Notes under the pieces: model-generated | Told to the model about the DNA's origin: nothing | What the model saw: only the letters and a program-made list of their open reading frames with translations | The model's database searches: none | Translations under genes and position numbers: made by a program | Shown here: piece after piece, positions 1,586 to 29,995 of the stretch | Layout of the letters: every line of letters starts with the position of its first letter | Numbering within the stretch: the stretch's first letter is position 1 | Assembly (NCBI GenBank): GCA_965235115.1 | Contig: OZ249436.1 | Coordinates: 31,684,001-31,748,000, forward strand | From: Laetmonice hystrix | Lineage: Eukaryota | Direction: 5' to 3' | DNA: 64,000 bases

Positions 1586-2764
1586 TTATGATCAATGTTC
1601 AAAAAATGAAGCGGCATATATTCAATTGTAATTGCTGAGGTCACTTCTGACAGGCCAGCCAACTTCCCCAGACACTCTGACCAACCAATGAAAACACTTT
1701 GACCAACCCCACCGGACACTCTGACCAACTGCCGGACACACTGACTTGCCGGATGCTCTGACCATCGGACGCACTGACTAGGATAAATCTGACGGCCCAT
1801 ACCATGGCCATGCCAATAGATGGTAATTTTGTCTTTTTGACATTTTCTATCATTTAGTATTTAGATATCTACACTAAGAAGACAAAGAGGGGCCCTTTGC
1901 ACTTTGTTGATCCCAAACCTAATCTGCTATAATGCTATGACCTATGTGTGAGCCTAGTATAATTAATATTATAGCTTTACCTTACAGTTACAATAATTGT
2001 TATCCCCTGCCCCAGGGCCAGGCTCTGCCCAGTCTCGGTCTCACGCTGTTAGATCGAGTACTATTAGTGGGCGAGCAGTGGCTCTGCCATGCAGAACCGT
2101 CATACCAGGCAGGATTGATGGGCGATAATATAAGACAAAGTGACATTTTGCCGACGTGTACACGTATAATTTCGTGCAGCATATGCTTCTAGCCCATAAC
2201 GTTAGGCGTTTATACCGGCGAAACGAGATCAATGATCAACAACTATCTCACCGAATATGTGTTTCTGTTTAATAATCTATAGCCTAGTTGTCTGGCATCT
2301 ATCATCAATCATGTAGGTACTGTGTGCCGTGGGTCGACCCTCAGCATGGCGAGATCCTAGACCAGTTCACACAGTAACTGAGGAACTGCAATCACTGCAA
2401 ACATCAAGTACAGCTAAGCTCTTTGAGCCATTCAAATTATTTTCAAATAATAAATACAATGATAATAATCCGTTCTATTCCTGCCCTAAATGTTTTCTTC
2501 AAATAGACTAACCTTCGTTGTAAACAATGTAGGTCCGGCCCAGATCACATTTTACTGAAACTATTAGACAGCACGGAATAGTACGGGATAATTCAGGAAC
2601 AATACCCGGCCGGGGAGGATCCAAATATGAATTTATTCTCTAAATTACACTCCTGTGAAGTTCAGTCACTTAAAATATAGTTAGTTACAAGTTAGTACAG
2701 TCACTATAGAGTCTACATTTCCACCGCGTGATCAGGGGCATGATAAACATGGGGACATAAACTT

Positions 2765-2948
2765 CAGGGCCGTGGCGTATAGCGAGGCTAGGCGTAGCCT
2801 GCGGGGGGGGGGGGGGGGGCAGGGCAGGGCGGGCAGCTGCCCCCCTGGGATTTCCAGTTTTTTGTGGGTTTTTTTTAACCCCCACCCCGGGCCAGCTCGG
2901 CCTACTGCCCCCCCCCCCCCCCCGCATTTGGGCCAGGCTACGGCCCTG
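2765..2948. mobile_element. Short CAG...CTG MITE with 5-bp TSD
   Basis: Termini CAGGGCCGT / ACGGCCCTG; AACTT duplicated at 2760-2764 and 2949-2953. Confidence 0.7.
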
Positions 2949-2957
2949 AACTTCTTA

Positions 2958-4032
2958 GGGGCAGACCATTTAATAGCGGGGGGGAGGGTATGGTTTTTCC
3001 TTCTGACCAAACTTTTTTTTTTGCTTCCAACAAAAAACAAACAATTTTTTTTTATCCCTAATCAAGAGCAAACAATTTTTTTTCCGAGGTGGCAGAGACA
3101 AACTTTTTTTTCCAGGACATAATTCTGCAGCAACCATTGTGTTATCCCGTAAATTTCTGTTCCACAGACATAGGCGCCGGAAGATATTCACAGGTGGGCG
3201 GGGGGGCACCAAATCATAGGTCCCAAGTTCCAAGTTTTGAAATGCTGGTGATAAGAACGTCGAAGGCGCGAAGTCTCGAGCGGGGGTCTGGGGGCCCTCC
3301 CCCGAAAAAGAATTGAAAATTAAAGTGCCAAATACACGTTTTCCTGGCATCTGGGAACAAAATCTAGGCCCTCTGTCGACGGTCTGACCATCTCCTGCCA
3401 CCTTGGAGCTGGGGGGAGGGGAACTATATGCTTGCCCCCCAGCTTTTGAGCTGGGGGTGGGGGGTGGGGGGTGGGGGGGGGGGGGGGGTGGGGGGGGGCA
3501 ACAGGCCGGTTTCTACATATAACATCTCTACCACAGCCTTAGGAATATATGATTGTACTGTATTCAGCTTTGAACCATGCAGTACTTTTATAATAGACTA
3601 TGAAACAAATTGGAAGTTCTAATTGTCTTCACAGATTTGTGGGCTTTCAAATATCTTGTAGTGCAAGCGAATGTCTACATGAAACAATTGATCAAGTTAT
3701 ACATACTAGTATTCAATTGCATGTCATAATTGTTCAGACTGATATGTTTTACTCAGTATTGTATAGAGTATGCCTAAATAAAACTGCTGACCGAGCGGAG
3801 CGAGGAAAATTTTTGGTCTTCTTTTAATTTTTTAGCAGTTTCAGGCAGATTTTTTTTTATAAATCTGCTTCCTGTCAACAATCTATTTTTTTTTCACACA
3901 CATTGCTAAACAAACTATTTTTTTCACACACATTTGAGAGCAAACTATTTTTTTGGGTAAACTTGGCAAACAAACTTTTTTTTTACGAAAAAACCATACC
4001 CCCCCCCCCCCAGCTATTAAATGGTCTGCCCC
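2958..4032. mobile_element. PIF/Harbinger-like MITE, probably with an internal insertion (~3170-3545)
   Basis: TIR GGGGCAGACCATTTAATAGC..GGGTATGGTTTTT / AAAACCATACCC..GCTATTAAATGGTCTGCCCC; TTA on both flanks. Confidence 0.85.
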
Positions 4033-4124
4033 TTATAATATTAATATCCCATGCCATGGGCATGGCCATGGCATGGGTATGGCCACAGCATTGATTATTA
4101 TACTTTTATAGATTGTCCATTATC

Positions 4125-4522
4125 ATTATGACGTTATTATAGTGATGTCACAATTATTCTGATTCATAAGATACATTGTCAAGTAAAAACGTCACGATAG
4201 TGACGTCAGAATAGCCATATCAGAGAAAGTATAATTATTGTGACGTAGTGAAAATGGCGGGCCGCGATAGACAGAGCCAAGTTCCCCCAATTTCACCTTC
4301 CTATCGCTAAATTTGCTTTACGATCTGACTCTGAAACGATAACAAACAGCCCCAATAGCTCGCCCCCTGACGGGTACGGCAGTAGGCAGGCATGCCGTAC
4401 GTGCCATTCGACGAACCGCCGAGTGTGCCTGGTAAAATCCCTGTCACAATTGACCTGCATCCGGGCATCTTGTGGATCTGCATCCATTGTGAAAACTACA
4501 GACTGGCATCGCGGGCGAAAAT
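4125..4522 (+). promoter_or_regulatory. Probable promoter and non-coding first exon of the variable-exon gene
   Basis: Cluster of CRE/ATF-like sites (TGACGTCA at 4201 plus TGACG half sites), YY1-type AAAATGGCGG at 4251-4260, CpG-rich stretch, and candidate donor AAT|GTGAGT at 4522/4523. Confidence 0.5.
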
Positions 4523-6247
4523 GTGAGTATTTTGGTCCAGAAATCAATATGTTGGTCCTGGATTTCATGCCCCGGCCATGATTAGCATTTTGACCGATGC
4601 AGATTCAACAGGTTTAATACAGACATTACGTTAACACATTTTGTGTGGGGGTTAGGCGTGTCAGAAGAATGAAAACATGAGGCGATTGAATCGGAGCCGA
4701 CAAACGATGATGACAGTTGTCAGAGAGTTGACAGGGACTGTCTGCGCTGCGCCCTAATTATCATTGGCTTAAATATGCCATGCAGCCCCGTCATCATGAA
4801 TGACATTGTCATTGGCCGAATTAAGTTTAAGGCCGTAATCGCAAGCTCTGTAATTCTGTCACATAAGGGCCGCCGAAAGTCAAGGCAGGCCCTGAACTGG
4901 GGCAAACTCAGTAACGTTAGGCATTAAATAAAAATAAAAATTAAAAAAAAGTGTTTGAGCCCCCAAATAGTGAACCTCCATCCACCTTGACTTTTGTTCA
5001 CATCGAGACAAACACAAAGCCGAAGGGAAGAACCTTGCTTTAGGTTTTCGTTTATTAATTAGGGGTACGCACAACGTCTCCACGTCATAATTGCATGCCA
5101 CATAACAACCTTTCCATTTCAAAAAGATAATATTTTGAAGCACATTTTGTTAAGGCCTTTCTTTCTGTATTTGCAGGAATGATATTTGATATTTCCAAAA
5201 AAGCCTGTGCGTGTGGACTGCACAGCATAGAAGCAGTATTCTGGCTGACACGGGCCCCAAAAAGCCATAGGAACGAGTTTCTGAATGACATTTTTTTCCA
5301 AATTTTCAAGGGGGGGGGGCCAGACCTTGCCTTCAGCGCTCGTATGTCTTGCTTTGCCCAATGGGGCCCCCCGCCCTCAGATTTTCTGGATCTGCCAATG
5401 CAGCAGAAGCTCTGCTAAATTACAACCTTGGCTCAAAATAAGCAGAATCACATCCCAATTTGCATTCCAAAATTTGTGTTTTCTGATACGGTACATGTAA
5501 CAAACTAATGGGAAGCAAAATTGCAAATCACTGGTTGCAGGGGTGTGTGAAACTGGTCCTGCCACCTTCCCGCATTCCCATGTGGTTGGGTGCCAGTGGT
5601 TACATGTAATCTTTCTCACAGGTTATTGAATGGCTATTAAACATAGGCATCCCTCCAGACTGCAATACACCTGTATGGACACGTAGTTCTCGTGAGGTCT
5701 GAGATGAGTGAATCCATCATTGTGGACACCAAAACTAGCTTTAAATTAATTTTCCGTACTCATTCACAGAGCTTTATGATTTGACCATTTTGGACACCAT
5801 TTCTGCCATATTTCTGCTTTGGGCCCACCGCCTACCCCCACCCACTTCCAAAACACTGGTCCCACACCTGAATACATCAGTGATGTACTTTGTCTGATAC
5901 TAGTAAATATTCTATAATATTCATCCCAACTTTTCCAAGGTTTTCCTGCATCCCAAGTAAACTTTTCCATTTTGAAGTGACTGTTAATCCAAAATTAACT
6001 ACATTTGTATTCTAATTTTTTTTTTAATCAAAGACTACAATAAACAAAATTTGAGGGGGGGGGGGGTATTTGATTCATTCTGGATCATAGTTTCAGGAAA
6101 TTTTGAATCACATTTACAAATTGCTTCTCAAACAAACAAACAATAGCAAAATTACTTCAGGCCCCTCAAAAATTATTTCCAGCTTTGTATTGGTTGTATA
6201 AATTTGTAAATATTTTTTGTATGATTATATTATGTAAATCAAATAGT

Positions 6248-7181
6248 CAGAGCTTCAGATAAGGTGCGTATTTACGTATTTACGCACTGAAGTGGTGGAA
6301 ATACGCAGTAATATCAGGGTCTGCCAAATCCCCCATAAATGTGGTTGCCCAGTGGGCAACCACAAATTCAAAAGTGGTGGCCCGACAAATAGAACTGGTT
6401 GCCCAGGATTTTTTGGTTCAAATATGAAGAAAAGCTTTGATTCACAAAAAAAAAATTATTGCCTCAAAAACTTGAAAAGCGTATGGCCATCAAGATGGCG
6501 ATAGCCTGGGCTATCTGTCAGCCATGGTCTATTGCAGTGTCCGGGTCAAAATCAAACTTTGGCCCATCAACTGCAAACGTTATGTAGGCCGACTCTGCAC
6601 TGTCAGCACCAACAACACTCTCATGCTCAGATGCAGGCGGCCGGCAACATGTAGGCTTCAGGCAGCCCAGCCCCAGGGCCAGGCACCAGTCATGTGACAT
6701 GTACTGATGTGGTCGCCCGACGGGCGACCGATCTATTCAATCCAGTTGCCCAGACCATAATTCTGGTTGTCCCGGGCGCTCGGTCCCTCGATTTGGCGGA
6801 CCCTGAATATTAAAGACCCTATCGTCAAAAACGCATCAGTATTGGGTAATAAAACCTTCCCATACGCTAGGTCCTTCTGTGCTGAGCGTCATATATGGTT
6901 GGGAGGGGCCTTCTAAAATGGTCTGCAGTGGTCAGCAAGCGCTGGCTGGGTGCCAACAGCTGGACACGTTGGCACCCTGCCAGTAGGGTGCCAACTGGAC
7001 AATACTATAAGTTGTCAGTTTCAGTTGTTCCCAGCATTAGCAAACACATGCAGGTCATTTGAAAGTGGGAAGTTAGAAGTCAAATACGCAACACTTGTTG
7101 AGGATGGGTACTACAATACGCAAGCTGAAAAAAGAGGGGGAGTCAAAAACTTCCCACCTTAAAATATTATCAGAAGCCCTG
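6248..7181. mobile_element. Non-autonomous DNA transposon (CAG...CTG, 6-bp TSD)
   Basis: TIR CAGAGCTTCAGATAA / TTATCAGAAGCCCTG; AATAGT duplicated at 6242-6247 and 7182-7187. Confidence 0.75.
6315..6805. mobile_element. MITE nested in 6248-7181 (5-bp TSD)
   Basis: TIR CAGGGTCTGCCAAATC / GATTTGGCGGACCCTG; TSD AATAT (6310-6314, 6806-6810). Confidence 0.8.
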
Positions 7182-7600
7182 AATAGTGTTGTCAACTTTT
7201 TATAGCCAGGGGCTACTGAATTCTGCAGTTGGGCTACCATTATCTACCAAGGGCTTCCTTCCATGGGCTATTAGTTACATTTTCAATTTGGGCTGCCTTT
7301 GTACACTAGTATTATAGTATTTGATTGGACTGCTGACGCTTGAGCTAGTGGATAGAAAGTTCAGCTCATGGGTTCTCTGCTGCCACTAAAGTTCTGGGCA
7401 ACCAGTTGCTAAAAAAAAGTTAACAGTAACACCATGTGCTGTAATTGTGTAAATATATATTATATTCAGAAGTGTCCTTTAAGTTCTGTTATATCCATAA
7501 ATGAACAAAGGATTTCCATGCTTACTATATTTGGTGTTCTACATTCCAGCACCATTTTCTTTTTAGAATGTTGCTTGGCTGAAGAATCAAAAAGCTTGCC

Positions 7601-8551
7601 ATGGTAGCTAAGGCTGAGCAGCTTCGAATTAAGGCACAATTGGTAGAAGCCATCAAGGTTCTATGTAGGAATGGCCTTGGCTTCAAAGCAAACCTCAGTA
7701 TTGAAGGCCTTCTAGGAATAACTCTTGACGATGAAGACATATTTCTTGTAAGTGTACACGAATTGATTCGGAAAAATGAAGATGGAGTTCTTGAAAGTTC
7801 AACACCAATGGAAGAGCGGAATAGTTCCTCTGAACGCCATTATGGGGTGCTACAACAACAGCAACAGCAGCAGCAACAACAGCAACAACAACAGCAGCAG
7901 CGTAATATTGTGGCAGCAAGTCAGGCAATGGACAGAGTTATGCTACCCGCTCTACCACCTAGTGCCCTTGTGGTCGCTGGGTCGGCAGGAATGAGCCTAC
8001 AACAACAGGTCCAGCACCTGCAACAGCAACAACAGCAGCAGGTGGCTGCTGTGCCATACCGCACACTCTCTGTAGATCACATGACGTCACCTGTTGCCAT
8101 CACACAACGGCGCACATCCAGCCTACCCCAGTCCCATAGTAGTGACCAAATTTCATTTACCTCCACCGTGGACAGTGCAATAGGCAGTAGTGCCGGGAGT
8201 AGTACCCAACCTTCACCACATATACCAATATTGAACACTAGGCGCCGCCGTAGAACTAACAGTGACCAATTAGACCCCCTGGCTAAACGTGCAACATTGA
8301 GCACAGAAAGCTCCAATGATTCAAACAGTGTTAGTGGAGGCGAGAATGTTGTAGTGAAAAATGAGCCATTGTCAGACTCAGAAAATGAAGGGACTTCACG
8401 TTCAGTTGATAGTGACTTCACTGTGCAGACCCCAGTGTACTCAGTGGTCGGAGAGGCAGTCCCAGGGTGTTCGACATGGGATCCAAGCATCCCTAACACA
8501 CCTGTCCACACAGTCGCAATGCCAGCCACACCAGGAACACAGCCTACACAG
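7601..8551 (+). CDS. Common (constant) coding exon of an uncharacterised nuclear protein with alternative C-termini
   Basis: Acceptor TTTTCTTTTTAG| at 7566, Kozak-like GCCATGG at 7601, 317 codons to a phase-0 donor CAG|GTAAAA at 8551. The ~58-aa N-terminal module (EQLRIKAQLVEAIKVLCRNGL..LSIEGLLGITLDDEDIFLVSVHELI) is followed by polyQ, an S/T-rich linker, a basic RRRRR..KR stretch (NLS-like) and VKNE (SUMO consensus). Confidence 0.85.
7850..7900 (+). repeat. Coding CAA/CAG polyglutamine repeat
   Basis: Mixed CAA/CAG run encoding about 16 Q within the common exon; a second, shorter run at ~8000-8041. Confidence 0.9.
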
Positions 8552-9396
8552 GTAAAAGAAATACACATCTTTTCATAAATTTGTGAGCCCAAGGCAAAGG
8601 TCTTTGCAGGCATGACCATTATCATTTTCTGAATGTATAATAAAATAAAGATTTCTAAACTGCAAGAATAGTGTAAGAGGTAAGGGTATCGTGAATGATC
8701 AATGTTAAGATTACAGATTTGTTTTTGTAACCTCCCTCCCAAATATCGGTTTACAATTACAGACAGTGCTTGAACACTGCAAACAAAATGAAAGGATGCT
8801 AAACCGTATTTTATAAGTCGTTTTCATGACTTTTCGTGCTAGAATCATGCTTGCATAATTATTTTCAAAAGAAGATAATATGGCTGTAAAGAGAAATAAG
8901 CAGCCTTTCCATGATGTGATATGTGGTGACTTTTTTAAATGATGGTAGCAGATGATTCTTGTAGTTTTACCAATCAAATTATTAATTTCAGGTTCAAGGT
9001 AGTAATCTTTAAATTGGCAGTGAATTGTCAAACAGTTACCGGTATGTTATGGTGTGTACATGTACATAAATCGATTGATTTGATAGATCTATGACAAAAC
9101 ATGACAGTTACTCGATACCTGACACATACACACATTTCTGTATACTACTTGCGCCCATTCTCAAAGCAGTGGTCACTGTGGTGTAGTGTAAGAATGGATT
9201 TATGCATGGACTGCCAGGTGACAAATGGCCATTCAACTTCTACTCATCCACACTGATTGCCAGTGGCTGGCTTATTATACAGTCGCAGGCTTTACCATTT
9301 TATGCATAGGAGAAGAAATTACGTTAGGCTTCAACTCAATGTCTTCCAATGAGCACAACTACCTTATTTGCCGTGGCGCCTTATGGAAGTGAGTTA

Positions 9397-9752
9397 TAGG
9401 GCTGGGACGATACACTCTGTTCACGATACGATACGTATCTCAATATTTACTCCACAATACGATATGTATCTAAATTCCATTCAAACTGACTACTGATCAA
9501 GTGCAGGTATTATCTTTCTCTTTGATGTTTGCTCTGGAGGAGTAAATGGAGCAATAGTGCAATACATAGAGAACATGGCCGCAATATCAGTATGACACAA
9601 TGGGCCATGGCTTTCATTAGTTTTCTATCACTTTTTATCACGTTTTAACGCCTTTTTGATAACAAATAAAGAATATTAACATATCGTATTCAGTTTTTGA
9701 AAAGTGAAAAAATCCGGATTCACGATAGTATCGATGAATTGTCACAGCACTA
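9397..9752. mobile_element. hAT-type MITE
   Basis: Termini TAGGGCTGGGACGAT / ATTGTCACAGCACTA; perfect 8-bp TSD GTGAGTTA (9389-9396, 9753-9760). Confidence 0.85.
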
Positions 9753-10472
9753 GTGAGTTATAAGAGCCATGATATCAGATGGTGCTGTAAATTATATCTG
9801 AAATGGTTGAGATGATATTTATGACACTCTGTTGTTATTGGACCCAGTCCTTGTCATTTCCTGATTTTCTTTTTAATATTTCTAAATCATGACAATACAT
9901 CAAGGTACAGCTGTTTCATGAATGCTCCATATTTTAGACATTTTGTGAACAAATATTGGCTCCATAAATATGCAATGAAACCTTTTGTGACCCTTTCATT
10001 GCATGAAATGTTAAGTGTAGTGGCTCACAAGGCATGCATGTCATCTTCATGGTACGGTAAATTTTGAAATATTTTACTCTTGAGGGCAATGCTTCAAGTT
10101 CAACACCTAGGGGGTACTGGTAAGCAGGGGCTAGCAACTTCCTCCGTTAAGATTCAGGCAAAGTAGTTTATCCCTCTCCAATCTCAGTCAAAGTAATCAA
10201 TCCAAATGAGGCTTATTCCCTGATGGCTTTTGAACCAACTCCCACCATTATAGCTGATACATCAAGTATAAGATTTCTTTTTTTTCTATAGAGAACTTTT
10301 TTTTTCTTTTTAAAGTTAAAAATAAGCATTGGTTTCCATTTTCCATAGTTTCACATGTGCTAGCCTAAGGCTTTGGTGCTATTATTGTTTAAATGTAACT
10401 AAGGGACTGGTCCGTCTGCACTGGCACTTGGCTCTTCCATACTCTAACCCCAGTTTTCCTTTCTCCCCCTAG

Positions 10473-11054
10473 GTGTTGTCAGGGACCAGGGGCATGATCA
10501 GTTGCTATGGTAACAACCACGCTAATCACCATGGCAACAGCAGAGGTGTTGTGCTGCCGGAGACGGCGCTGTGCTCGGCCCACCGTAGCATCTTGGAGCA
10601 GACAGGGTGCATAGTGTTCGCCTCCAGCGTGGTGCTCCAAGACGGCACAAAGACTCACACACGAACTAATGCTCACCTCGTGCAGATCATGCAGGACATG
10701 ACGTATCCGCTCGGCCATCCACGACACGTCGGCCAGTACAAAGAGGTCATGGCGGGCCGCTACTCTCGTAAGGTATTTTACAAGTGTCCCCCAGAGGTGA
10801 TTCGTCAGGAGATGCTGGGGGCATATGGAATCTCGCTCAAGACATACACTAAACTTTTTTATAGTGATGTCAAACCTGTGACCTCAAGCTCAAAGTGGTT
10901 TGAAACGGTTGAGACGCTAATGTTAAATTTTCCATATGGACCACGACTTTTCCCATTACAGATGATGGGTTTAACAGAAGACCAGATGAGGGTGCTGAGC
11001 ATGGTGAGGGTGTACAAAGAGACCAAACAAAACCAAGGACAGGCTGCTAAATAA
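10473..11054 (+). CDS. Alternative terminal exon A (193 aa, unrecognised globular-looking domain)
   Basis: Branch-like CTCTAAC (10442), polypyrimidine tract and TAG| at 10472. The open frame starts exactly at the acceptor in phase 0, matching the 8551 donor, and ends in TAA. Confidence 0.75.
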   Translation: MLSGTRGMISCYGNNHANHHGNSRGVVLPETALCSAHRSILEQTGCIVFASSVVLQDGTKTHTRTNAHLVQIMQDMTYPLGHPRHVGQYKEVMAGRYSRKVFYKCPPEVIRQEMLGAYGISLKTYTKLFYSDVKPVTSSSKWFETVETLMLNFPYGPRLFPLQMMGLTEDQMRVLSMVRVYKETKQNQGQAAK

Positions 11055-12787
11055 TAACCTACCATCACAAGGACAAAAAACAAAGCCACAACCCAACCAC
11101 TCCAACAGTTACAAGGACAGGAAACAATATTTAAAGTCATAATTGCTAAATCGATCTCCCACTAATTACTGTATCAGTCTGAGCCAATAACAGACTACAG
11201 AATGATAAGTTAAAACAATTTCACTTTAGGAGTTTCAGCTAGGATCAGACACCTTTTACCAACCCCCAAGAGTTGTGTGTTTCCTGTTCATATCATTCGT
11301 ACGGTACATTCAGAGTATTTACGAGCACTCTTGGCAGCCTGTTCTGACAGTACAGCCTACTGCAGCATGTATCCACTATTTCAGGTTATGGCAAGAAGAA
11401 CTCTGGCTCAAATCATAGATTCTATTGAATTTAAAAAAAAGAAAATCAATTCACAAGAGACATATATTTCCAGTCAACAGACATATCCCTTGGGTGCATT
11501 ATAAATTAATATGGAAACCGGAGTAAAATGACGAAAGACACATTCCCGCCGATAACAACACCGACAGCATGTATATGTAGGGAGATGGAGCATGTTTAGA
11601 GAAATAAGAACGGTCATGGCTTTTTAAAAGTTCTTCAACATATATTGTCTCTGTTTTGGTGTGTATGTTGGCTTGATGTGATTACCTCGATTACAACTAC
11701 CGGTACCAGGCTTAATGTTTGTGTCGGTATTGGTATCGGCCATCAACATGAACAATTGGTAAGACTTTGTGGTGCATGTTGTACTTCATATATGCAAATA
11801 CATACACACATCATGTATGCATATATGATAAGTAAATAATATACATACATATAAATATATATATTTGTAAAGGAAGAGTTTGTGAAAGTGTTGGTGTGCA
11901 AATCCATGATGTGCTACACTTCATAGAGAAGGTTACAGTCATAATGTGTTGTGTGGATCAAAGTGTGACTCAATTTATAAAAGGCAGGAACCAGTATCTC
12001 GCATAACTTTGGTGCTGAGCATCTTCTGCAGACTTAGGCCAGAGAAAAGGTGTTCTTTTGAGCAGAGGTTTATCTTTTAAAAATGTATGCTTACAGGTTT
12101 AGTTTATTTATACAAAGTCTCTTATTTTGAAAACGAGACTTTTTCATTAGGCATTACTCATGTAGTGTCATGTTAGCGTCTCCATCAGTATTCTTTCTTG
12201 ACAGTTTTCCAAGGTGAAACACATACTTTACAGACTTAAAAGAGGGAGAGGGGAAGAAACCTCAAAATCTGTGATTACTACATGTCTGTGTCTGATGGGT
12301 TTCTAAAAAAATTTCAGCATGTAAAACGGTATGGTGTAGATGCTGCCCAGTGTATTAAAAAGATGTGTTCACCAACATGGTTGATTAATGAAAATGGTTG
12401 GATTGGCTGGTGAACACCTGGCAGGCATCCAGAAGTGAATGCTTTCCTTGTTTGCCTTTCACGTCAAGGTCTGGGAACCATTTATTCTCAGGTGAGAAGG
12501 GAGAGACTGATTGGATATTGGACGGTCACAGTCGTCCTGTGTCTATTAACAAGAGTTCTACAACTTGTTTATTGTCTTTTTACAAACTGGCTTTAACATT
12601 CAGAAATGAAGCCTCCAAGCTGAATTCTCAGTCTTTGGTTTCAGCGTCGACATGGAGAGAGGATGATGGAGAAGTCCAAAGTTTACAAGCCTTTTGTAGT
12701 TTTAACGGTGCTAACAACATTATGAGGCTACATGTAAATTGTATCCCTTATTACCCGGGTCAAACTGATTTCCCAAATGTTATGTTA

Positions 12788-13147
12788 GATAAGCGCCTCA
12801 GACTACATAAATCAATAAATGTATATCCACAGAAATGGAGAAATCTAATTAAATTCAACATTACAGTTGCCTGTTGTCGCTATAAAACGATCGGCTTATG
12901 CCTGGTTGTTGACAAAATTAAGTTGACCTGGCATTGAATTAAACAGCCAATGAAATTCATTGGTTCATCACTCGATGAATTTCATTGGCTGTTGAAGTCA
13001 ATGCCAGGCCAACAATTGTTGAATTTCATTAGATTTCTCCATTTCTGTGGATATAAATTAATTGTTGAATTTCATTAGATTTCTCTGTATCTGTAGATAT
13101 ACATTAATTTTATTGATTTATGTACATGTGTAGTCTAAGGCCTTATC
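12788..13147. repeat. Long foldback / palindromic MITE
   Basis: Outer arms GATAAG..CAGACTACA / TGTAGTCT..CTTATC; middle arms TATATCCACAGAAATGGAGAAATCTAAT..TTCAACA and its reverse complement; inner 34-bp arms at 12927-12960 / 12975-13008. Confidence 0.8.
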
Positions 13148-14804
13148 TCACCTAACAGCCTATGATGTCTTCATTTTGGAATCATTGAACTAGGAGATAA
13201 TCATGCATGGCTTTAATAGTCCTTATTTTCCTTCTGTCAACATTTCAAATGTGTCCGATTGAAGTAATTCGTGCAAAAAGAATAAATGTGTAAAAGGTAT
13301 AAAATCCATACAAATATAAAGTAGAAGTCCGATTATACTGCGTGAGTAAAGCATGATAACTACTGATCTCAATGTGTGGACTGATTACAGCCAGTCTCAT
13401 AATCAAAGGATCATGTTGCTTGTTATGGTGAACGTCATGGAAGGCAGATCATCGGCCTTAGAAAGTCGCTGCTGTTTAGCATGAAGAGTTTATTGTATAT
13501 AATGGACAACTTTTTATTAAACACCTGAAAGTATTGACCTTTATTGAAAGGAAGGAGAGCAGGTATTTCTTGATTTAGGTCTTTAGAAAACTGCCAAATT
13601 GACCAGTTAAGTTTTCAGTGTGCAAGATATCGACTACATCGAGAATACAACTTAGACAAGACAACTCTGATAGCCATCAATGTATTTGAGATACAAGCTG
13701 AAAACTACTAAGATGATAATATCTTATTTAGCCGCAAAATGTGTTCATTCCTGTATAGGTGGGAGCCAGTTTTCCTTCTAAGTGATATCATCGGTATTAT
13801 ATTTTCAAGAGTACGTTGAATCATTGTTCTCCTGCAGACTTGTAGTAGCTAAATTCAGTTGACCTTTTGTATTGTTATTGTCAATAAGTGAGTTTTCTAA
13901 CGCCTAGCGTCATTGAGTTCCCTTTAGTGATCGACAGCGGAGATTGTAGTAGTGGTGGGTACAAGGTACATGTAGTACGGAAATATTCTTAAACAAATTA
14001 CAAATGTTATGACCGTACATACCAAGTTGTTTTTAGCTTGCTGCGTCTCCATCGTTATGCACGGTACATGTGCGTTTATTTTTTATAATTTCATTGGGAG
14101 GGGAGATATTCTGGCAAACTGTGTGGTAAAGTTCTTGACAAGGTACAGGATGTGAGAAAGACTTACATGTAATTAACTTGGTGCTTATTGACCAGTGTGA
14201 AATATGGCTTGTCAACACTCTTAATCTCCCAGGTCTGAGAGGGGCTGCATACCTTAAAAATGGGTGCTTATCGGAAGATAATGTGATAAAAACACATTTA
14301 TCAGGGGGCGTGGCATATAGGTTGTGAAAATAATTGTCCGAGCAGCTTATGTATACGGCAAACAACCATTGGCCATTTAATACTGAAGCACCAAACAGAC
14401 TAATAAAACGCTCGATATCAGAAAGTTGCGTAATATTCATCAAATTGCCCAGTAAGTTATAAAGTTTTGCAGCCGACCAGCTATTTATTTTTGTATTTAT
14501 TTATTTCTGAAAGAAAAATGGCAAAGCATCTCTTGCCATGCTAACTAGTCTCCTTATCTTATAAACACGTGCATGTGGTCGTAACAAAACTTCCGAGTTG
14601 ACCTGAATGAAATATTTGTTCACGTTGCGTTGGCCCCTGTTGAATTACTGTGATACGCCCAGTGTGCTGTGTGACAACATTGGTGAAGTGGTGAACTTTG
14701 TTATTGTGTGGTATTGTGTATTTTCAAATTGTGTATTATAAACAAATATTATAAAACTATATTGTTGAGCCACTGAATGTATACATGAATATATACGAAA
14801 ATGA

Positions 14805-14810
14805 AATAAA
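14805..14810 (+). terminator. Candidate polyadenylation signal for the exon A isoform
   Basis: AATAAA with upstream TGTA and downstream GT/T-rich sequence, ~400 bp before the exon B acceptor. Confidence 0.35.
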
Positions 14811-15221
14811 TTTTCAGTGTGTAATTATGTGCGATAGGTTCACGTTCTTCTTGTACAAGCGGGCGTAAGACACGTGTCTCATGAACTTCTTCTTTAGAGG
14901 GTCTCGAAGTCACAAGATAGTAATTCCTTTTGATTTGAGACTTGAGTCGCATTTCATGACCAAGCCATGATATTGGACACCGTTTTTATGACTTTCAAAT
15001 ATTTCGTTTTCTAAAACAACGGATTTTCAATTCATATAGGCTAAGCACCAGTTACACTGTTAACGATAACACTTGAAAGTGAAAGAATCACTCAATGCAT
15101 ATAACTAAACAAGTTTTCGGGATTTTAGCGAGTGACTTGTATAGGCCTATCACACATGGCACATCAGAAATAAATATGGTAGAACTTTGTGTCTAATTCG
15201 TTTTTCCAATATATATTGCAG

Positions 15222-15818
15222 AATTGGGTGATGAATATAATTCAGCGCCAACAGCATCGTGGATCAACGATCTCAGCACATCTTGACGAGCAGCGGACAC
15301 GTGACCGTGATCGCATGCGCAGATATCGTGATCTGTTACGAACAAACACGGGCGAGTACGAGGAACACAAACGGCGGGACCGGGAACGTACGCGCATCTA
15401 CCGGGAAAAACTCAGAACAAATGACCCGGACAAATATGCCGAGATGAATAGAAAAAATGCCGAGCAGCACAGGAAAAAGAGAGAGATATTACGGGCACTT
15501 GCAGCGGCTGAACATACTGTTCACCAAGGGACAACGTTTGCATTGGATTCAGGATATTTCAGTGGGGTCATGGGGATGGGAATGGGCATTGGGATGGACA
15601 ACAATTGGCTGGCCCCAGACCAAATAGGGGGCAACATAGCCACAAACATTGCTACGATGGGTGTGAACGTAAACCCTAGCCTGGCTACCCTGGCGCATAA
15701 TGCAGCAACTCAAGAAGCTGCCGGTAGAATAAACCAGGATCCCCAAGCTTGTCCACTGCCTCCTCACGCAGAGCTGCAGAATCAACCGCAAAGGTTGGAA
15801 GATAATACGGCCACCTAG
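15222..15818 (+). CDS. Alternative terminal exon B (198 aa; repeated basic helical, putative DNA-binding motif)
   Basis: Branch-like GTCTAAT (15191), T-rich tract, TTGCAG| at 15221, phase 0. Encodes ~25-aa repeats RDRDRMRRYRDLLRTNTGEYEEHK / RDRERTRIYREKLRTNDPDKYAEMN / RKNAEQHRKKRE and ends in TAG. Confidence 0.75.
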   Translation, partial: NWVMNIIQRQQHRGSTISAHLDEQRTRDRDRMRRYRDLLRTNTGEYEEHKRRDRERTRIYREKLRTNDPDKYAEMNRKNAEQHRKKREILRALAAAEHTVHQGTTFALDSGYFSGVMGMGMGIGMDNNWLAPDQIGGNIATNIATMGVNVNPSLATLAHNAATQEAAGRINQDPQACPLPPHAELQNQPQRLEDNTAT

Positions 15819-15977
15819 TGTCAGATTATTGCATTCACGAGAGGATATTTCTGGCTCCTAGGCCTATAGGTAGCTGCAAAGAGTAGGGGAACGTTTCAAG
15901 ATGGCAAGCTGATGATTCTGGCCCTAGATCTATATTTCTGGAATAATTCGGCCCCACCTCAGCCTAGTTTATCTTAA

Positions 15978-16576
15978 GGCCAGACTTAATTAATATTTAG
16001 GTTTACGCGCATTTTTCGACAGGTCGGTAGGGAGGGGGGGGGGCAATTGACTTTTTTTTAACCGTCTTATTTACATTGACAATTTAAGGTCGGTAGGTGG
16101 TAAAAAAATGTATGAATGGGAAGAGTTTCTTGAAATAGAACAAACAAATCAAGTCATTTGCAAAATATGTTTAAAATATTATTATTAAAATTAAAAAATT
16201 ATCCCAGCAACAGGCACTGTCGGCGGGGACAAAATAAATAAACTGGTCTTGAATTTTTAATTTTTTTTTTTTCCAAATTTCGGAAATCTATGGTCGGCGG
16301 GCGCGTTAACCGAATTTACACAAATTCTGTTTGTGATATTGCCCAACAGACTATAATGTAGCTCTTTTATAGTCAAGCAATTTCAGCATATAAATATGAT
16401 ATTAAAAAGCCCCCGCAACAGAATATTAAAATTAAAAAATTATCCCAGCAACAGGCACTGTCGGCGGGGACAAAATAAATAAAACTGGTCTTGAATTTAA
16501 TTTATTTTTTTTTCAAATTTCGGAAATCTATGGTCGGCGGGCGCGTAAACCGAACTGCTATTAAAAAAGTCTGGCC
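15978..16576. mobile_element. PIF/Harbinger-like MITE with internal duplication
   Basis: TIR GGCCAGACTT..GGTTTACGCGC / GCGCGTAAACC..AAGTCTGGCC; TAA TSD; a ~135-bp segment is duplicated (~16183-16315, ~16424-16554). Confidence 0.8.
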
Positions 16577-17408
16577 TAAGTAGCCTACATACCTTTTGCT
16601 ATAGTGCGCTAGTGTCACCACGTGGATTTTCTTCTGTGAATATGTACTAAGACGTTATTCGATTCTTCAGTGTATTGCTATATGTACGATGACAAGTGAA
16701 AACTCTGTCAAGTCAGCAGTTAAGGAATTTGTTGAAGCTTTGTTATCACTTTGTTAAGACTGTTTTAATTATTTTGCTATAGGCCTGGCCTAACTTAGGC
16801 CTGATGATATGAGAACTTCCATTTTGGATCGTCGGGGCTATAATTCAATATATGTATTTATTTATCTATTTATCAATTGTATTGAGCACTGTTAGCATTA
16901 AAGCATTCACAGAAAAAAATGTTTTTTTCCGTGAAGGACAAAATGATATACAATCAACGTTTTTTGGTATCTTTTTTTCTTCTTCTAGCTGTATTCCCTA
17001 AATCGCGCAACTGTCTTCCCCCATCCCTTTCTATGTCTCGCCCTTAGGCCCTATATAGAAATGTTGATTGTGATTTTAGAAGCGGTTCAATGTAGTGCGC
17101 TGTTGATAGAGCTCACAAAAGTCATATGTGATCGATCTCATGCGCCGAGTAGCTGTATCAAACTAATAACCGTGACTGCTTGGCGACAGTAGGACGGCTT
17201 GTATCGGAACGGTACTGAACTGAATGAAGGGTCATGAAACATAAAATAATTATAGTAGTACCATAATTAAAATTATTAGCCAAGGAATTTCGGGAGGAGG
17301 GGCCCGGGACCCGCGTAGGCCTATGTATTTGTTTTCAAATATAAATTTTAACGTTGACCCCAGTTATATAAGAGTCCCTTTTTATATTGCCAGTTTCTTA
17401 ATTTTCTT

Positions 17409-28240: not shown

Positions 28241-28477
28241 CCCAATTTGTACCGGTTGAAGTTGCAATACTACCATCATATTAGTTGAAACCATTGTGAT
28301 AGGATCCGATGATCTCAAAAACGCTACTTCAAATGACAGAAACCCCTGCCTACCATGTTTGAAAATGATGAATTAGGTTTGTGTAAATGTGTTGAATGTA
28401 TGTTGATCTCAAATTCACAGAACTTGACTTTGACATTTGCCCTATTTTCAGATGTTCCGATGGTGATAGGTTGAAGC

Positions 28478-29995
28478 ATGTCAGAAAAACAATCCATTGG
28501 GGAGACACATGGAAATGATGGTCAGGCTAGTCACTGCTATAAGTCACTCTTCAATCAAAAGCTGTGGGATGCAGCTATCACAAAGAAGGACAACATAGCA
28601 AACAAAGACAGATGTCAAATCTCTGTTGTTGAAAACTGTACAATTGGCCAAAGAAGAAAGCAAGCATGTGGCTATCCAGAAGATGGAGAAGGATCTTGGG
28701 GAGGAGACCGGTCTTGTCTAGATATAGCACAAGTCCCCATGGTGGCTGTGGCTAATATATTGTCTTTTTTAGAATGGAAAGATAAATTATCAGCTGTCCG
28801 AGCAATACCAGTGTGGCACAGTCCTCTCTGTACAGTAAAGGCGTGGCCAGTGCTTGCATACCATGAGGATGCTTCAACCAAGACTGATGTCCGTCAGAAA
28901 GTTTCTCAGTGCATCTCTACCTATGGAAAATACATAACAAGTATAAAACTAGCCTTTAATTACTGGTACCCTGTGGGCAGGAGAGGCAGGCAGGTCCTGC
29001 ATGAAATAGCAACAAACTGTGCACAGTTACATACACTTTGTATTGCTGACACAGTGTGGAGCGAGCAAGCAGAATGTGCCCTTAATCAAGTGTTAGTTAA
29101 CTGCCCCAAACTGAGGGACCTTGCTCTGGTGCGACCAGTCTTGGCATGGAGTGAAGAAGACGATAATGTTGTGACTATTATTGGCCAACCACACCACGCT
29201 ACGAAACTCACTAGGCTTATACTGACGAGTGAATCGCTCTTGGAACATGAAGGACCTCTACATATCCTACAAAACTTCACTTCTCTACATACTTTAAAGA
29301 TACGACGGGAAGAGCTGAGCGAAAACATTCTCGTACAACTGGCACAGCATAAACTGGAAAAGCTCAGCTTGTTCCTTGATGAAGAGGTAGAGTATGGTGT
29401 GCCAATGATATATTCAAGTTCATTGTGGGAAACGGTATGCAAACAGAGTCCCAAGTTTGTGCTCCATCTGGTGCTGAAGAACATCATTGTGTTAAGGTCC
29501 AGCTTCCCGTCTGGTGCTCCACTGAATACCCTTGTGATGGTGGACCTCTCGGCCTCGCTAACCAAAGGCATTCTAGACACCATCACAGCCCAGTACTCGG
29601 CAACTCTCCAGACCTTTGTCTATACTAAATCATGTCAGCTTGACTGTGCTCAAGTTGAGGACCGGCGCCTCCCAGTTGCCCTGTATGATTTGGTACGTCA
29701 TTGTAGCAGTTTACACACCCTTGTATACGGCTTCCAAATATCCTCCACAACAGCACTTATGATTGCCAAAGTGCGAAGGCTCAACCATTATGTGTTACTG
29801 CTGGATGAAGTAACCTTTGAACAGGATTGGCAAGTACAACCCGACTGGAGTGCTGAATTCCTAACATGGTTAAAATCGAGTGGCTCTAGCTTGTGCAATC
29901 TTGAAACAGCAATGTCAGAACTGTTAGAATATCCTTGGAGAATGTCAACACAGTTTAGTATGTGGGAAAATGTGAATTTCTATTGCAATCTTTGA
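28478..29995 (+). CDS. F-box/leucine-rich-repeat protein (FBXL8/FBXL3-type), single coding exon
   Basis: 505-aa ORF with an F-box-like segment (VPMVAVANILSFLEWKDKLSAV..W), cysteine-type LRRs (NCAQLHTLCI, NCPKLRDLAL, HCSSLHTLV) and a C-terminal DW..PDWS.EF..WL..LL.YPW motif like invertebrate FBXL8-like proteins. Confidence 0.85.
   Translation: MSEKQSIGETHGNDGQASHCYKSLFNQKLWDAAITKKDNIANKDRCQISVVENCTIGQRRKQACGYPEDGEGSWGGDRSCLDIAQVPMVAVANILSFLEWKDKLSAVRAIPVWHSPLCTVKAWPVLAYHEDASTKTDVRQKVSQCISTYGKYITSIKLAFNYWYPVGRRGRQVLHEIATNCAQLHTLCIADTVWSEQAECALNQVLVNCPKLRDLALVRPVLAWSEEDDNVVTIIGQPHHATKLTRLILTSESLLEHEGPLHILQNFTSLHTLKIRREELSENILVQLAQHKLEKLSLFLDEEVEYGVPMIYSSSLWETVCKQSPKFVLHLVLKNIIVLRSSFPSGAPLNTLVMVDLSASLTKGILDTITAQYSATLQTFVYTKSCQLDCAQVEDRRLPVALYDLVRHCSSLHTLVYGFQISSTTALMIAKVRRLNHYVLLLDEVTFEQDWQVQPDWSAEFLTWLKSSGSSLCNLETAMSELLEYPWRMSTQFSMWENVNFYCNL

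Follow-up and report, generated by a model that had tools for sequence, protein, structure and literature searches.

Can an annelid gene choose between unrelated C-terminal ends by splicing one constant exon to alternative last exons, a constant-plus-variable-end design for which lola and other insect genes are the main known examples? The question is raised by a locus within a window of 64,000 nucleotides, the whole stretch of Laetmonice hystrix DNA analysed here. The locus is very probably a two-choice member of a BTB-less family of about 40 loci that resembles lola and mod(mdg4) by convergence. The initial annotation had proposed a constant exon with alternative terminal exons, and this reading is supported by co-located A- and B-type exons, the exon start of the B paralogue, phase-0 arrays and the protein record P0250. 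The scale of the system was underestimated there: the locus is a small member of the family.

Anatomy of the Locus

The features of the locus are collected in Table 1; the previously reported 317-codon exon and its donor were reproduced from the sequence. The conserved part of the constant exon comprises only about 55 aa. The [VIL]KxE motif of the linker, which we take to be a SUMO consensus, occurs in 24 of 30 paralogous linkers, with 3.0 expected from shuffles, and a GCSxW motif is present in 14 of 30 paralogues and in 109 of the 240 gathered proteins. The exon frame ends with QPTQ/V, as it does in the orthologue P0004 from another assembly.

Each of the two downstream ORFs, A and B, was annotated as lying in phase 0 behind a branch point, a pyrimidine tract and an AG and as having its own stop. 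All of this holds for both, with one reservation: exon B scored below the pyrimidine cut-off of the acceptor scan (0.68), and its tract is therefore weak. Among the frames opened by YAG acceptors with a pyrimidine tract on the plus strand between 8600 and 28400, that of exon A is the longest by far (193 codons; the next has 67). The two ORFs share no similarity, as first noted, and BLASTP gives no alignment between them at E ≤ 100; the predicted products, recomputed, have 510 aa (constant part plus A) and 515 aa (constant part plus B), matching the original estimates. A search of window positions 1–28400 by zinc-finger pattern and A/C profiles, which small internal exons would escape, found no further variable exons.

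Table 1. Features of the locus (window coordinates; in splice motifs a slash marks the exon boundary).
Feature	Position	Strand	Details
Constant coding exon	7567..8551	+	acceptor AG 7565-7566, directly before the exon start; strong-context ATG 7601; frame 7601-8551, 317 codons; phase-0 donor CAG/GTAAAA
Four-codon upstream ORF	7568..7582	+	same frame as main ATG; stops 18 bases 5' of ATG
N-terminal family module	7601..7783	+	about 55-60 aa; genome matches and predicted structure
CAG/CAA repeat	7852..7901	+	poly-glutamine in low-complexity linker
VKNE, [VIL]KxE motif	8354..8365	+	
PGCSTW motif	8462..8479	+	close to the end of the constant exon
Branch-point-like CTAAC (10444), pyrimidine tract and AG of exon A	10444..10472	+	acceptor TAG 10470-10472
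Terminal exon A, coding part	10473..11054	+	193 aa and TAA
Winged-helix-like domain of exon A	about 10557-10844	+	followed by helical extension
Phase-0 donor-like site in exon A	11004..11009	+	possible minor A-to-B route; not kept in paralogues
Candidate poly(A) signal of isoform A	14805..14810	+	nine AATAAA/ATTAAA hexamers in the A-B interval, this among them
Branch-point-like CTAAT (15193), weak pyrimidine tract and AG of exon B	15193..15221	+	acceptor CAG 15219-15221
Terminal exon B, coding part	15222..15818	+	198 aa and TAG
Basic Arg/Glu-rich helical repeats in exon B	about 15288-15491	+	about 24-25 aa each; non-conserved tail after

N-Terminal Module

The model of the module (pLDDT 91) consists of a helix (residues 2–22) followed by a two-strand hairpin (28–39 and 43–54). 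The module has no significant Pfam or PDB match. The proposal that the front part is not a BTB domain agrees with the Pfam and PDB profiles: no BTB family appears when the constant exon and 30 modules are compared with Pfam (E ≤ 1), and no BTB chain was returned by PDB profile searches with the module (E ≤ 10). Fold searches gave nothing clear; BTB chains are not among the matches listed, which does not decide against a BTB fold. The best of the fold matches has a Z of 4.1 (RMSD 6.8 Å over 57 residues; 2.5 Å over 53), none reaches Z ≥ 5, and Foldseek returned nothing at E ≤ 0.001. KRAB, SCAN and zf-AD are not among the seven Pfam families matched by any of the 30 modules (E ≤ 1). An Atlas search with the module gave no match, and the module as a single query against proteins of 177–566 aa gave one. 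A four-copy complex predicted without an alignment scored 0.26 against a mark of 0.32. No description of the module or the family was found in the open full texts of PMC and bioRxiv; subscription papers or supplements may name the domain.

Terminal Exons A and B

Exon A is predicted to bind DNA. Winged-helix proteins head both PDB searches with its model (pLDDT 83), and the helix–strand–helix–helix–hairpin topology is common to exon A and winged-helix proteins of the PadR/MarR kind; exon A differs from these in its low identity (7–13%), a Z of at most 5.7 and an extra helical C-terminal half, and it falls short of assignment to any one family. The best structural match is middling (Z 5.7, RMSD 3.5 Å, 83 residues aligned), Foldseek gave no match at E ≤ 0.001, and a comparison with longer proteins gave none. 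In the Atlas, exon A matches only clusters of viral RdRP fragments and hypothetical proteins (0.88–0.93, 105–145 shared features). Identity as an RdRP was rejected in favour of a winged helix, which is indicated by the model and by the two PDB searches; a viral fold library contained no match at E ≤ 0.001.

Exon B, also a predicted DNA-binding exon, has no Pfam match above the cut-off. Independent translation of both ORFs is possible, because an in-frame ATG lies at most eight codons from each acceptor (10494 in A; 15231, the fourth codon, in B). Exon A might then be the only true last exon, with B a short gene in its own right or a degenerating relic, in either case with its own ATG at 15231. 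The position of this ATG, the weak tract, the existence of one paralogue only and the lack of a junction among the 15 of 78 joints listed are in line with this reading, but the paralogue itself argues against it. It lies about 0.4 kb 3' of a constant exon that also ends with QPTQ/V, and it is stop-free and 53% identical over 86 residues. Its boundary, TGCAG/xAx TGG xTx ATG, is that of exon B, with the same surroundings of the acceptor and the same opening codons 5' of the ATG. A separate B is accordingly very improbable.

The genome holds at least eight A-type matches and at least two B-type matches (the window's own A and B included), none with internal stops, and nine of these ten are located behind a module. 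These findings speak against a multicopy transposon, which the initial annotation had named as a refuting condition for either ORF.

Contig Data and Proposed Splicing

The contigs used come from X1, X3 and X4, three of the four runs of one study, for which the kind of run is unrecorded. X4 contigs cover parts of both ORFs. One of them (8244–8551) stops at the last base before the donor, which is less than a weak hint of splicing; X1 and X3 contigs pass through. Coverage extends to 30 of 30 bins in X1 and X3 and to 24 of 30 in X4, which is empty in the single-copy non-coding bins 4451–5803, 8961–9411 and 9863–10313 and also at 7608–8058, within the constant exon. Since this last bin is empty too and a filter drops records, the gaps are no proof that X4 is RNA. 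The junctions 8551–10473 and 8551–15222 are absent among the 15 of 78 joints listed.

A back-calculation from bin totals was also made; it rests on depth-summing assumptions and is not counted as evidence. Under these assumptions, the totals fit contigs that begin at 10473 and 15222, the donor with two junction contigs is predicted at 686 against 750 seen (A alone, 365), and bin 10765–11215 is filled to 2482 of 2480, with no room for an A-to-B contig.

The two ORFs had been said to be unable both to be internal exons. Their own stops are confirmed; the exclusion is not airtight, because three donor-like sites in phase 0 lie within exon A, the best of them after 11003 (codon 177, just beyond the domain). 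Spliced at this site, A would become an internal exon joined to B in a 692-aa constant-A-B protein, and read-through would give an A-only form. The site, ATG/GTGAGG, scores 6.0, against 5.5 for the donor of the constant exon, and an X4 contig (record 18) starts at 10975, 29–30 bases upstream, about one word length, as a graph branch would give. A polymorphism could equally start the contig there, however, and non-coding DNA nearby has 1.2 sites per kb that score at least 5.5. Moreover, the tails of six paralogous A exons contain no donor-like site in phase 0, and the B paralogue stands directly behind its constant exon with no A-type match between them. Chained splicing is therefore improbable. 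Under the preferred reading, in which A and B are alternative last exons, the locus would use both junctions, with coupled polyadenylation.

The Family in the Genome

The module has 40 matches genome-wide, 31 of them on one contig. Searches unguided by position, in which the window's own A and B are counted, placed seven of eight A-type, two of two B-type and 56 of 56 C-type matches on the same strand as a module and within 60 kb downstream of it; the chance of lying in such a position is about 0.002 per match. The sole A-type match without a module nearby is weak (E = 0.05, on C10). A-type exons are found behind four other constant exons and a B-type exon behind a fifth, and the exon pair of the locus is no chance feature, because intact relatives of both ORFs stand behind paralogous constant exons.

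In 626 kb around 33 modules, all 139 domain-bearing ORFs are on the strand of the module, so that no variable exon on the opposite strand is needed to explain them. Their best acceptor is in phase 0 in 116 cases, phase 1 in nine and phase 2 in nine, with none in five, phase being a heuristic score without a simulated null. The regions were chosen downstream of modules, and 'downstream' is thus by design; strand and phase are not. No Met precedes the domain in 46 of the 139. At least two terminal exons are present at 18 of the other 32 modules examined, and no variable exon was found in the stretch read at eight of the 33. The largest array, at C1:29,172,056–29,253,000 on the plus strand, consists of 81 C2H2 exons over 76 kb behind one module, with no second module in 160 kb; 73 are in phase 0, and the 81 base-contact fingerprints are all distinct. 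Arrays of 52, 26 and 20 candidates stand at other paralogues; most of these terminal exons encode two C2H2 fingers, and most are in phase 0. The closest paralogue, L002 (tree support 94/88, from few columns), has 17 C-type exons besides two C2H2 and one of the A type. With 30 rows, 58 columns and two of 27 branches starred, the module tree is too weak to order events. A hand sum gives at least some 270 terminal exons in the family.

Variable exons of the paralogues match the nucleic-acid-binding families zf-C2H2, BrkDBD and DUF3504/QRICH1. C-type exons have no Pfam family above the cut-off (six tested) and a best E of 0.2 in PDB profile searches. Most module exons themselves encode no DNA-binding domain and terminate in a donor; of 30 constant exons, only 20 were assigned phase 0 by a crude donor score.

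The arrays might also be independent single-exon genes, transposon-borne ORFs or spliced-leader-resolved operon-like units merely near modules. C2H2, DUF3504 and BrkDBD-type domains are often transposon-derived, and a Met does precede the domain in 93 of the 139 ORFs. Leader trans-splicing, however, needs no phase 0, which is found in 116 of 134 scored acceptors, and the uniform strand, the position of every C-type copy behind a module and the donor-ended module exons without a DNA-binding domain all speak against independence, which is scarcely credible.

Homologues in Other Species

The five homologue records that bear a name are all annelid: Lamellibrachia, Ridgeia (two), Paralvinella and Helobdella. 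The module is joined to C2H2 fingers in P0150 of Paralvinella and also in P0128 and P0111, and to a BEN domain in P0148 of Helobdella. P0250, from another organism, tracks P0025 up to HNLQ and then has a two-finger tail, while P0025 continues into intron-like sequence; judged from these sequences, P0250 looks like a spliced constant-to-zinc-finger product. The cluster of P0114 was considered as a set of isoforms and rejected, the difference being a frameshifted tail. None of the 240 gathered proteins combines the module with an A-type or C-type domain. A Pfam family was found in four of 54 representatives, and most others resemble a constant exon read into the intron.

Comparison with Known Systems

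The genes tramtrack, broad and fruitless have two to four cis-spliced alternative last exons with zinc fingers. The present two-exon locus is of that size and differs in its N-terminal domain and in its ends, A and B being unrelated folds and neither a zinc finger. PMC11426971 describes these three as multi-isoform TTK-type BTB genes and reports that neither Annelida nor Mollusca yielded a TTK-type BTB. It has an arthropod distribution, whereas the named homologues of the present family are annelid. According to PMC11426971 and PMC4208683, mod(mdg4) has at least 30 isoforms, mostly FLYWCH, with a common N-terminus of 405 aa, and lola has different C2H2 ends in 17 of 20 isoforms. Both combine a common N-terminal part (interaction domain and linker) with alternative DNA-binding ends, and the layout here is the same: a constant 5' region of similar size is followed by several in-phase terminal exons, and the family includes two-finger ends, as in lola. 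In contrast to both, the family has a 55-aa helix-hairpin module, with no BTB by sequence, about 40 loci in one genome, arrays of up to 81 exons, every variable exon found being on the strand of the constant exon, and, among its variable domains, two undescribed types, A and C.

KRAB-, SCAN- and ZAD-zinc-finger families have a small lineage-restricted N-terminal effector domain, are clustered on chromosomes, have fast-diversified finger fingerprints and arise by whole-gene duplication with long finger arrays. A small N-terminal domain, a one-chromosome cluster and diversified fingerprints are shared by the present family, in which, unlike in the others, duplication mostly concerns the last exon, behind a single common front.

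Proposed Mechanism and Significance

Each family gene would have one constant coding exon composed of the module, a linker that is disordered and contains basic clusters and [VIL]KxE, often GCSxW, and a phase-0 donor. The donor would be spliced in cis to one of several phase-0 acceptors downstream, each of which would begin a terminal exon complete in itself, including a stop and a 3' end. At the present locus, splicing to A and cleavage before 15.2 kb would yield isoform A, with the winged-helix-like domain, and skipping of A would yield isoform B, with the basic helical repeats. The variable exon would set the nucleic-acid target, the module would most likely serve as a BTB-like hub for self- and partner-association, and the linker may recruit cofactors.

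For transcription factors, this design has so far been associated with the TTK-type BTB genes of arthropods; if it arose a second time on an unrelated domain, it would be a convergent solution and no peculiarity of BTB. The scale is also different, with 81 candidate two-finger ends in one gene against at least 30 isoforms of mod(mdg4) and 20 of lola. Gene predictors retain a single model for each locus, and many database entries are a constant exon read into its own intron; annelid transcription-factor counts may therefore miss hundreds of isoforms. Three unnamed domains are supplied, the module, A and C. The family offers a test case in which one donor would choose among dozens of acceptors over 76 kb, and the present locus a compact two-choice model for acceptor choice.

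A wider reading, possible and on the whole doubtful, is an annelid family-wide cassette system: some 40 constant exons, whose undescribed module would oligomerise, would share a pool of at least about 270 terminal exons. These would derive from zinc fingers, from domains of transposon origin and from two new folds, would have moved between loci and might even be trans-spliced within a one-chromosome cluster. If this is true, a choice of exon that is stochastic or specific to the cell, together with mixed multimers, would create a combinatorial and rapidly evolving repertoire of DNA recognition, larger than that of lola or mod(mdg4), perhaps doing the job that vertebrate KRAB zinc-finger genes do against transposons.

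Organisation of the gene

The predicted gene consists of a constant exon, whose start encodes a module of about 55 aa, and two downstream terminal exons, A and B (table). The anatomy proposed in the initial annotation, a 317-codon exon with a phase-0 donor at 8551 and two phase-0 units of acceptor, ORF and stop, was confirmed in the sequence. The predicted products of 510 aa (constant+A) and 515 aa (constant+B) match the isoforms of about 510 and 515 aa then expected and, as had been claimed, A and B fail to align. The argument that two exons with their own stops could not both be internal stood only in part. Both stops are present; yet the stop codon by itself is no proof that A is terminal, given a phase-0 donor-like site within this exon, after 11003. 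Chained splicing in the order constant–A–B is nevertheless improbable; the site is absent in all six paralogous A exons examined.

Features of the gene and related loci. Bare positions refer to the window; L-numbers are loci or stretches in the L. hystrix genome (G000), and C1 is its contig bearing the window.
Feature	Location	Strand	Details	Basis
Constant exon	from 7567, preceded by TTTTTAG	+	4-codon upstream ORF, then ATG at 7601	sequence
Constant exon, coding part	7601-8551	+	317 codons; end CAG/GTAAAA, phase 0	sequence
Exon A	10473-11054	+	preceded by CTAAC, strong pyrimidine tract and AG; phase 0, own stop	sequence
Exon B	15222-15818	+	preceded by CTAAT, weaker pyrimidine tract and AG; phase 0, own stop	sequence
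L008, head-to-head paralogue	G000:C1:31,683,724-31,683,900	-	module match, 100 bases before the window	
C-type terminal exon, ~220 aa	L049:428-1087	-	one of 56 places	
81-exon C2H2 array	G000:C1:29,172,056-29,253,000	+	loci L089, L090, L107-L109, L113-L116	

Contigs of sequence run X4 cover parts of the A and B ORFs; three runs of one study were examined, none on record as RNA. One X4 contig stops on base 8551, where X1 and X3 contigs, from runs likewise not recorded as RNA, run on; another X4 contig starts near the donor-like site in A. Junctions 8551-10473 and 8551-15222 are not among the 15 joints listed of 78. High-copy repeats lie at about 6250-7150, 9400-9750, 12800-13130 and 15970-16580, with a summed contig depth of hundreds to tens of thousands (X1, X3); the last contains a duplicated stretch of ~150 bases directly behind exon B. 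A 506-codon ORF at 28475-29995 (+), for which Pfam gave nothing at E ≤ 1, is F-box/LRR-like by eye.

The constant module and its family

The window sits on a 73.8-Mb contig of a 627-Mb animal genome, in which two single-protein searches gave 39 and 38 module matches (40 combined, 31 on this contig). At the 30 loci read, an open frame of 170–560 codons is nearly always begun by the module. The linker is not conserved across 30 paralogous loci apart from [VIL]KxE (24/30 linkers; 3.0 expected), basic clusters (29/30, a count without a control) and GCSxW (14/30). By a crude donor score, the best donor is phase 0 in 20 of 30 constant exons. A profile search returned 1,885 representatives at E ≤ 0.001; the five named records with the module are all annelid (Lamellibrachia, Ridgeia (two), Paralvinella and Helobdella). 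The AlphaFold2 model comprises one helix and a long hairpin (pLDDT 91). Nothing significant was found for the module among Pfam and PDB profiles, with BTB, KRAB, SCAN and zf-AD all absent.

The module occurs in two tandem copies in P0005, P0013, P0155 and P0156, proteins of other organisms. At L013 (G000:C1:12,469,324, +), the module and C2H2 fingers share a single frame without interruption, which resembles a retrocopied spliced isoform. Family members often lie tail to tail or head to head, their arrays growing toward one another; pairs on the contig are L023/L002, L007/L004, L010/L024, L026/L019 and L018/L028. L008 has one HTH-like and two C2H2 end exons, and it and the window gene probably both start from window 2000-4500. 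This region contains AAAATGGCGG at 4251-4260, which is presumably YY1-like.

Co-location of terminal exons with modules

Whole-genome searches gave eight matches to exon A and two to exon B. Counting the window's own copies, seven and two of these have a same-strand module ≤31 kb upstream. For the third terminal-exon type, C (~220 aa), all 56 matches lie ≤51 kb downstream of one. The matches are preceded by five (A), two (B) and ten (C) different modules; with 40 modules the per-hit chance of such co-location is about 0.002, tandem copies being non-independent. A-type exons are found behind L002, L005 and L024, and three consecutively behind L007. In five of the six paralogous A exons, the acceptor is in phase 0 and its pyrimidine fraction is ≥0.7; the sixth has such an acceptor further in. 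The B paralogue is located directly behind L004, whose constant exon ends in QPTQ/V, as in the window gene; its acceptor context is TGCAG/GAC TGG TTC ATG, against TGCAG/AAT TGG GTG ATG for window B. Judged from sequence, A and B are true partners of the module, and it is very unlikely that B is an independent or relic ORF. Between L007 and its three A-type exons, L042:3172-7428 (+) holds a 1,419-codon ORF with DNA_pol_B_2 (E 3e-46), probably a Polinton-type element.

A scan of both strands across 626 kb surrounding 33 modules gave 139 ORFs that carry a C2H2, A, C, DUF3504 or HTH domain; the regions were picked downstream of modules, B-type exons were uncounted and some exons escape the finger pattern. 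All 139 are on the strand of the upstream module, and the best acceptor is phase 0 in 116, phase 1 in nine, phase 2 in nine and absent in five. Four arrays were extended to 52, 26, 20 and 81 exons. The largest, behind the module at C1:29,172,056, has mostly two fingers per exon over 76 kb, phase 0 in 73/81 and 81 different fingerprints, with no second module within 160 kb. That the arrays are clusters of independent genes is hardly credible. L002, the closest paralogue of the window gene, has two C2H2, one A and 17 C exons; such mixed arrays imply that exon types are gained or shared across loci. The search for further variable exons elsewhere yielded at least ~270 candidate terminal exons for the family as a whole (hand sum over the array surveys and co-location counts, plus the two B exons).

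Nature of the variable ends

Paralogous ends have above-cut-off Pfam matches to zf-C2H2, BrkDBD and DUF3504/QRICH1. The DUF3504+QRICH1 exon, L070:3414-4517 (+), follows module L028 as a terminal exon in phase 0; its DUF3504 domain is presumably of Crypton origin. Pfam gave no match for exon A. The exon A model (seven sequences, pLDDT 83) has a helix–strand–helix–helix–hairpin and a helical half, and both PDB searches with it were topped by winged-helix proteins, PadR-like regulators first (best winged-helix match Z 5.7, rmsd 3.5 Å over 83 residues). The model is thus suggestive of a winged helix, though not securely. Exon B contains a run of Arg/Glu-rich repeats of 24–25 residues, the only part common to B and its paralogue (53% over residues 15–100), and may have a basic helical DNA-binding role. 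Searches of Pfam and the PDB gave no match for the C-type exon. The order of its motifs (FRxSW, YPGxxYW, xKD) may resemble that of rolling-circle Rep/HUH proteins minus the metal-binding histidines.

In other species, the module is joined in single chains to C2H2 fingers (P0150, P0128, P0111) and to a BEN domain (P0148). P0250 and P0025, from one cluster, agree closely up to HNLQ; beyond it, P0025 goes on with V and intron-like residues, whereas P0250 switches to a two-finger tail, the pattern expected of a phase-0 splice. Among 240 database proteins, and in a search of longer proteins with A as the query, none joined the module to A or C.

Proposed mechanism and significance

Most probably, the single phase-0 donor of the constant exon is joined in cis to either A or B, the choice being tied to 3′-end formation, with nine candidate poly(A) hexamers between them. 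The variable exon would determine the target, and the module would mediate self- and partner-association. From its position and amphipathic helix–hairpin shape, the module probably plays the part that BTB has in lola. Arrays would expand as the last exon is duplicated in tandem.

The gene would work in the same way as lola and mod(mdg4); TTK-type BTB and Mod(mdg4) are confined to arthropods (PMC11426971, PMC4208683). The window family is without BTB by sequence and hence not a member. The lola/mod(mdg4)-like reading with a different N-terminal domain, put forward initially, is supported by the co-location of A and B with modules, the phase-0 arrays and the lack of a BTB match. No account of the module or arrays was found in the open literature.

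The 81-exon locus is the best one for an RNA test. The evidence supports a BTB-independent, family-wide system of alternative, predicted DNA-binding last exons, whose significance lies more in the family than in its two-exon member in the window.
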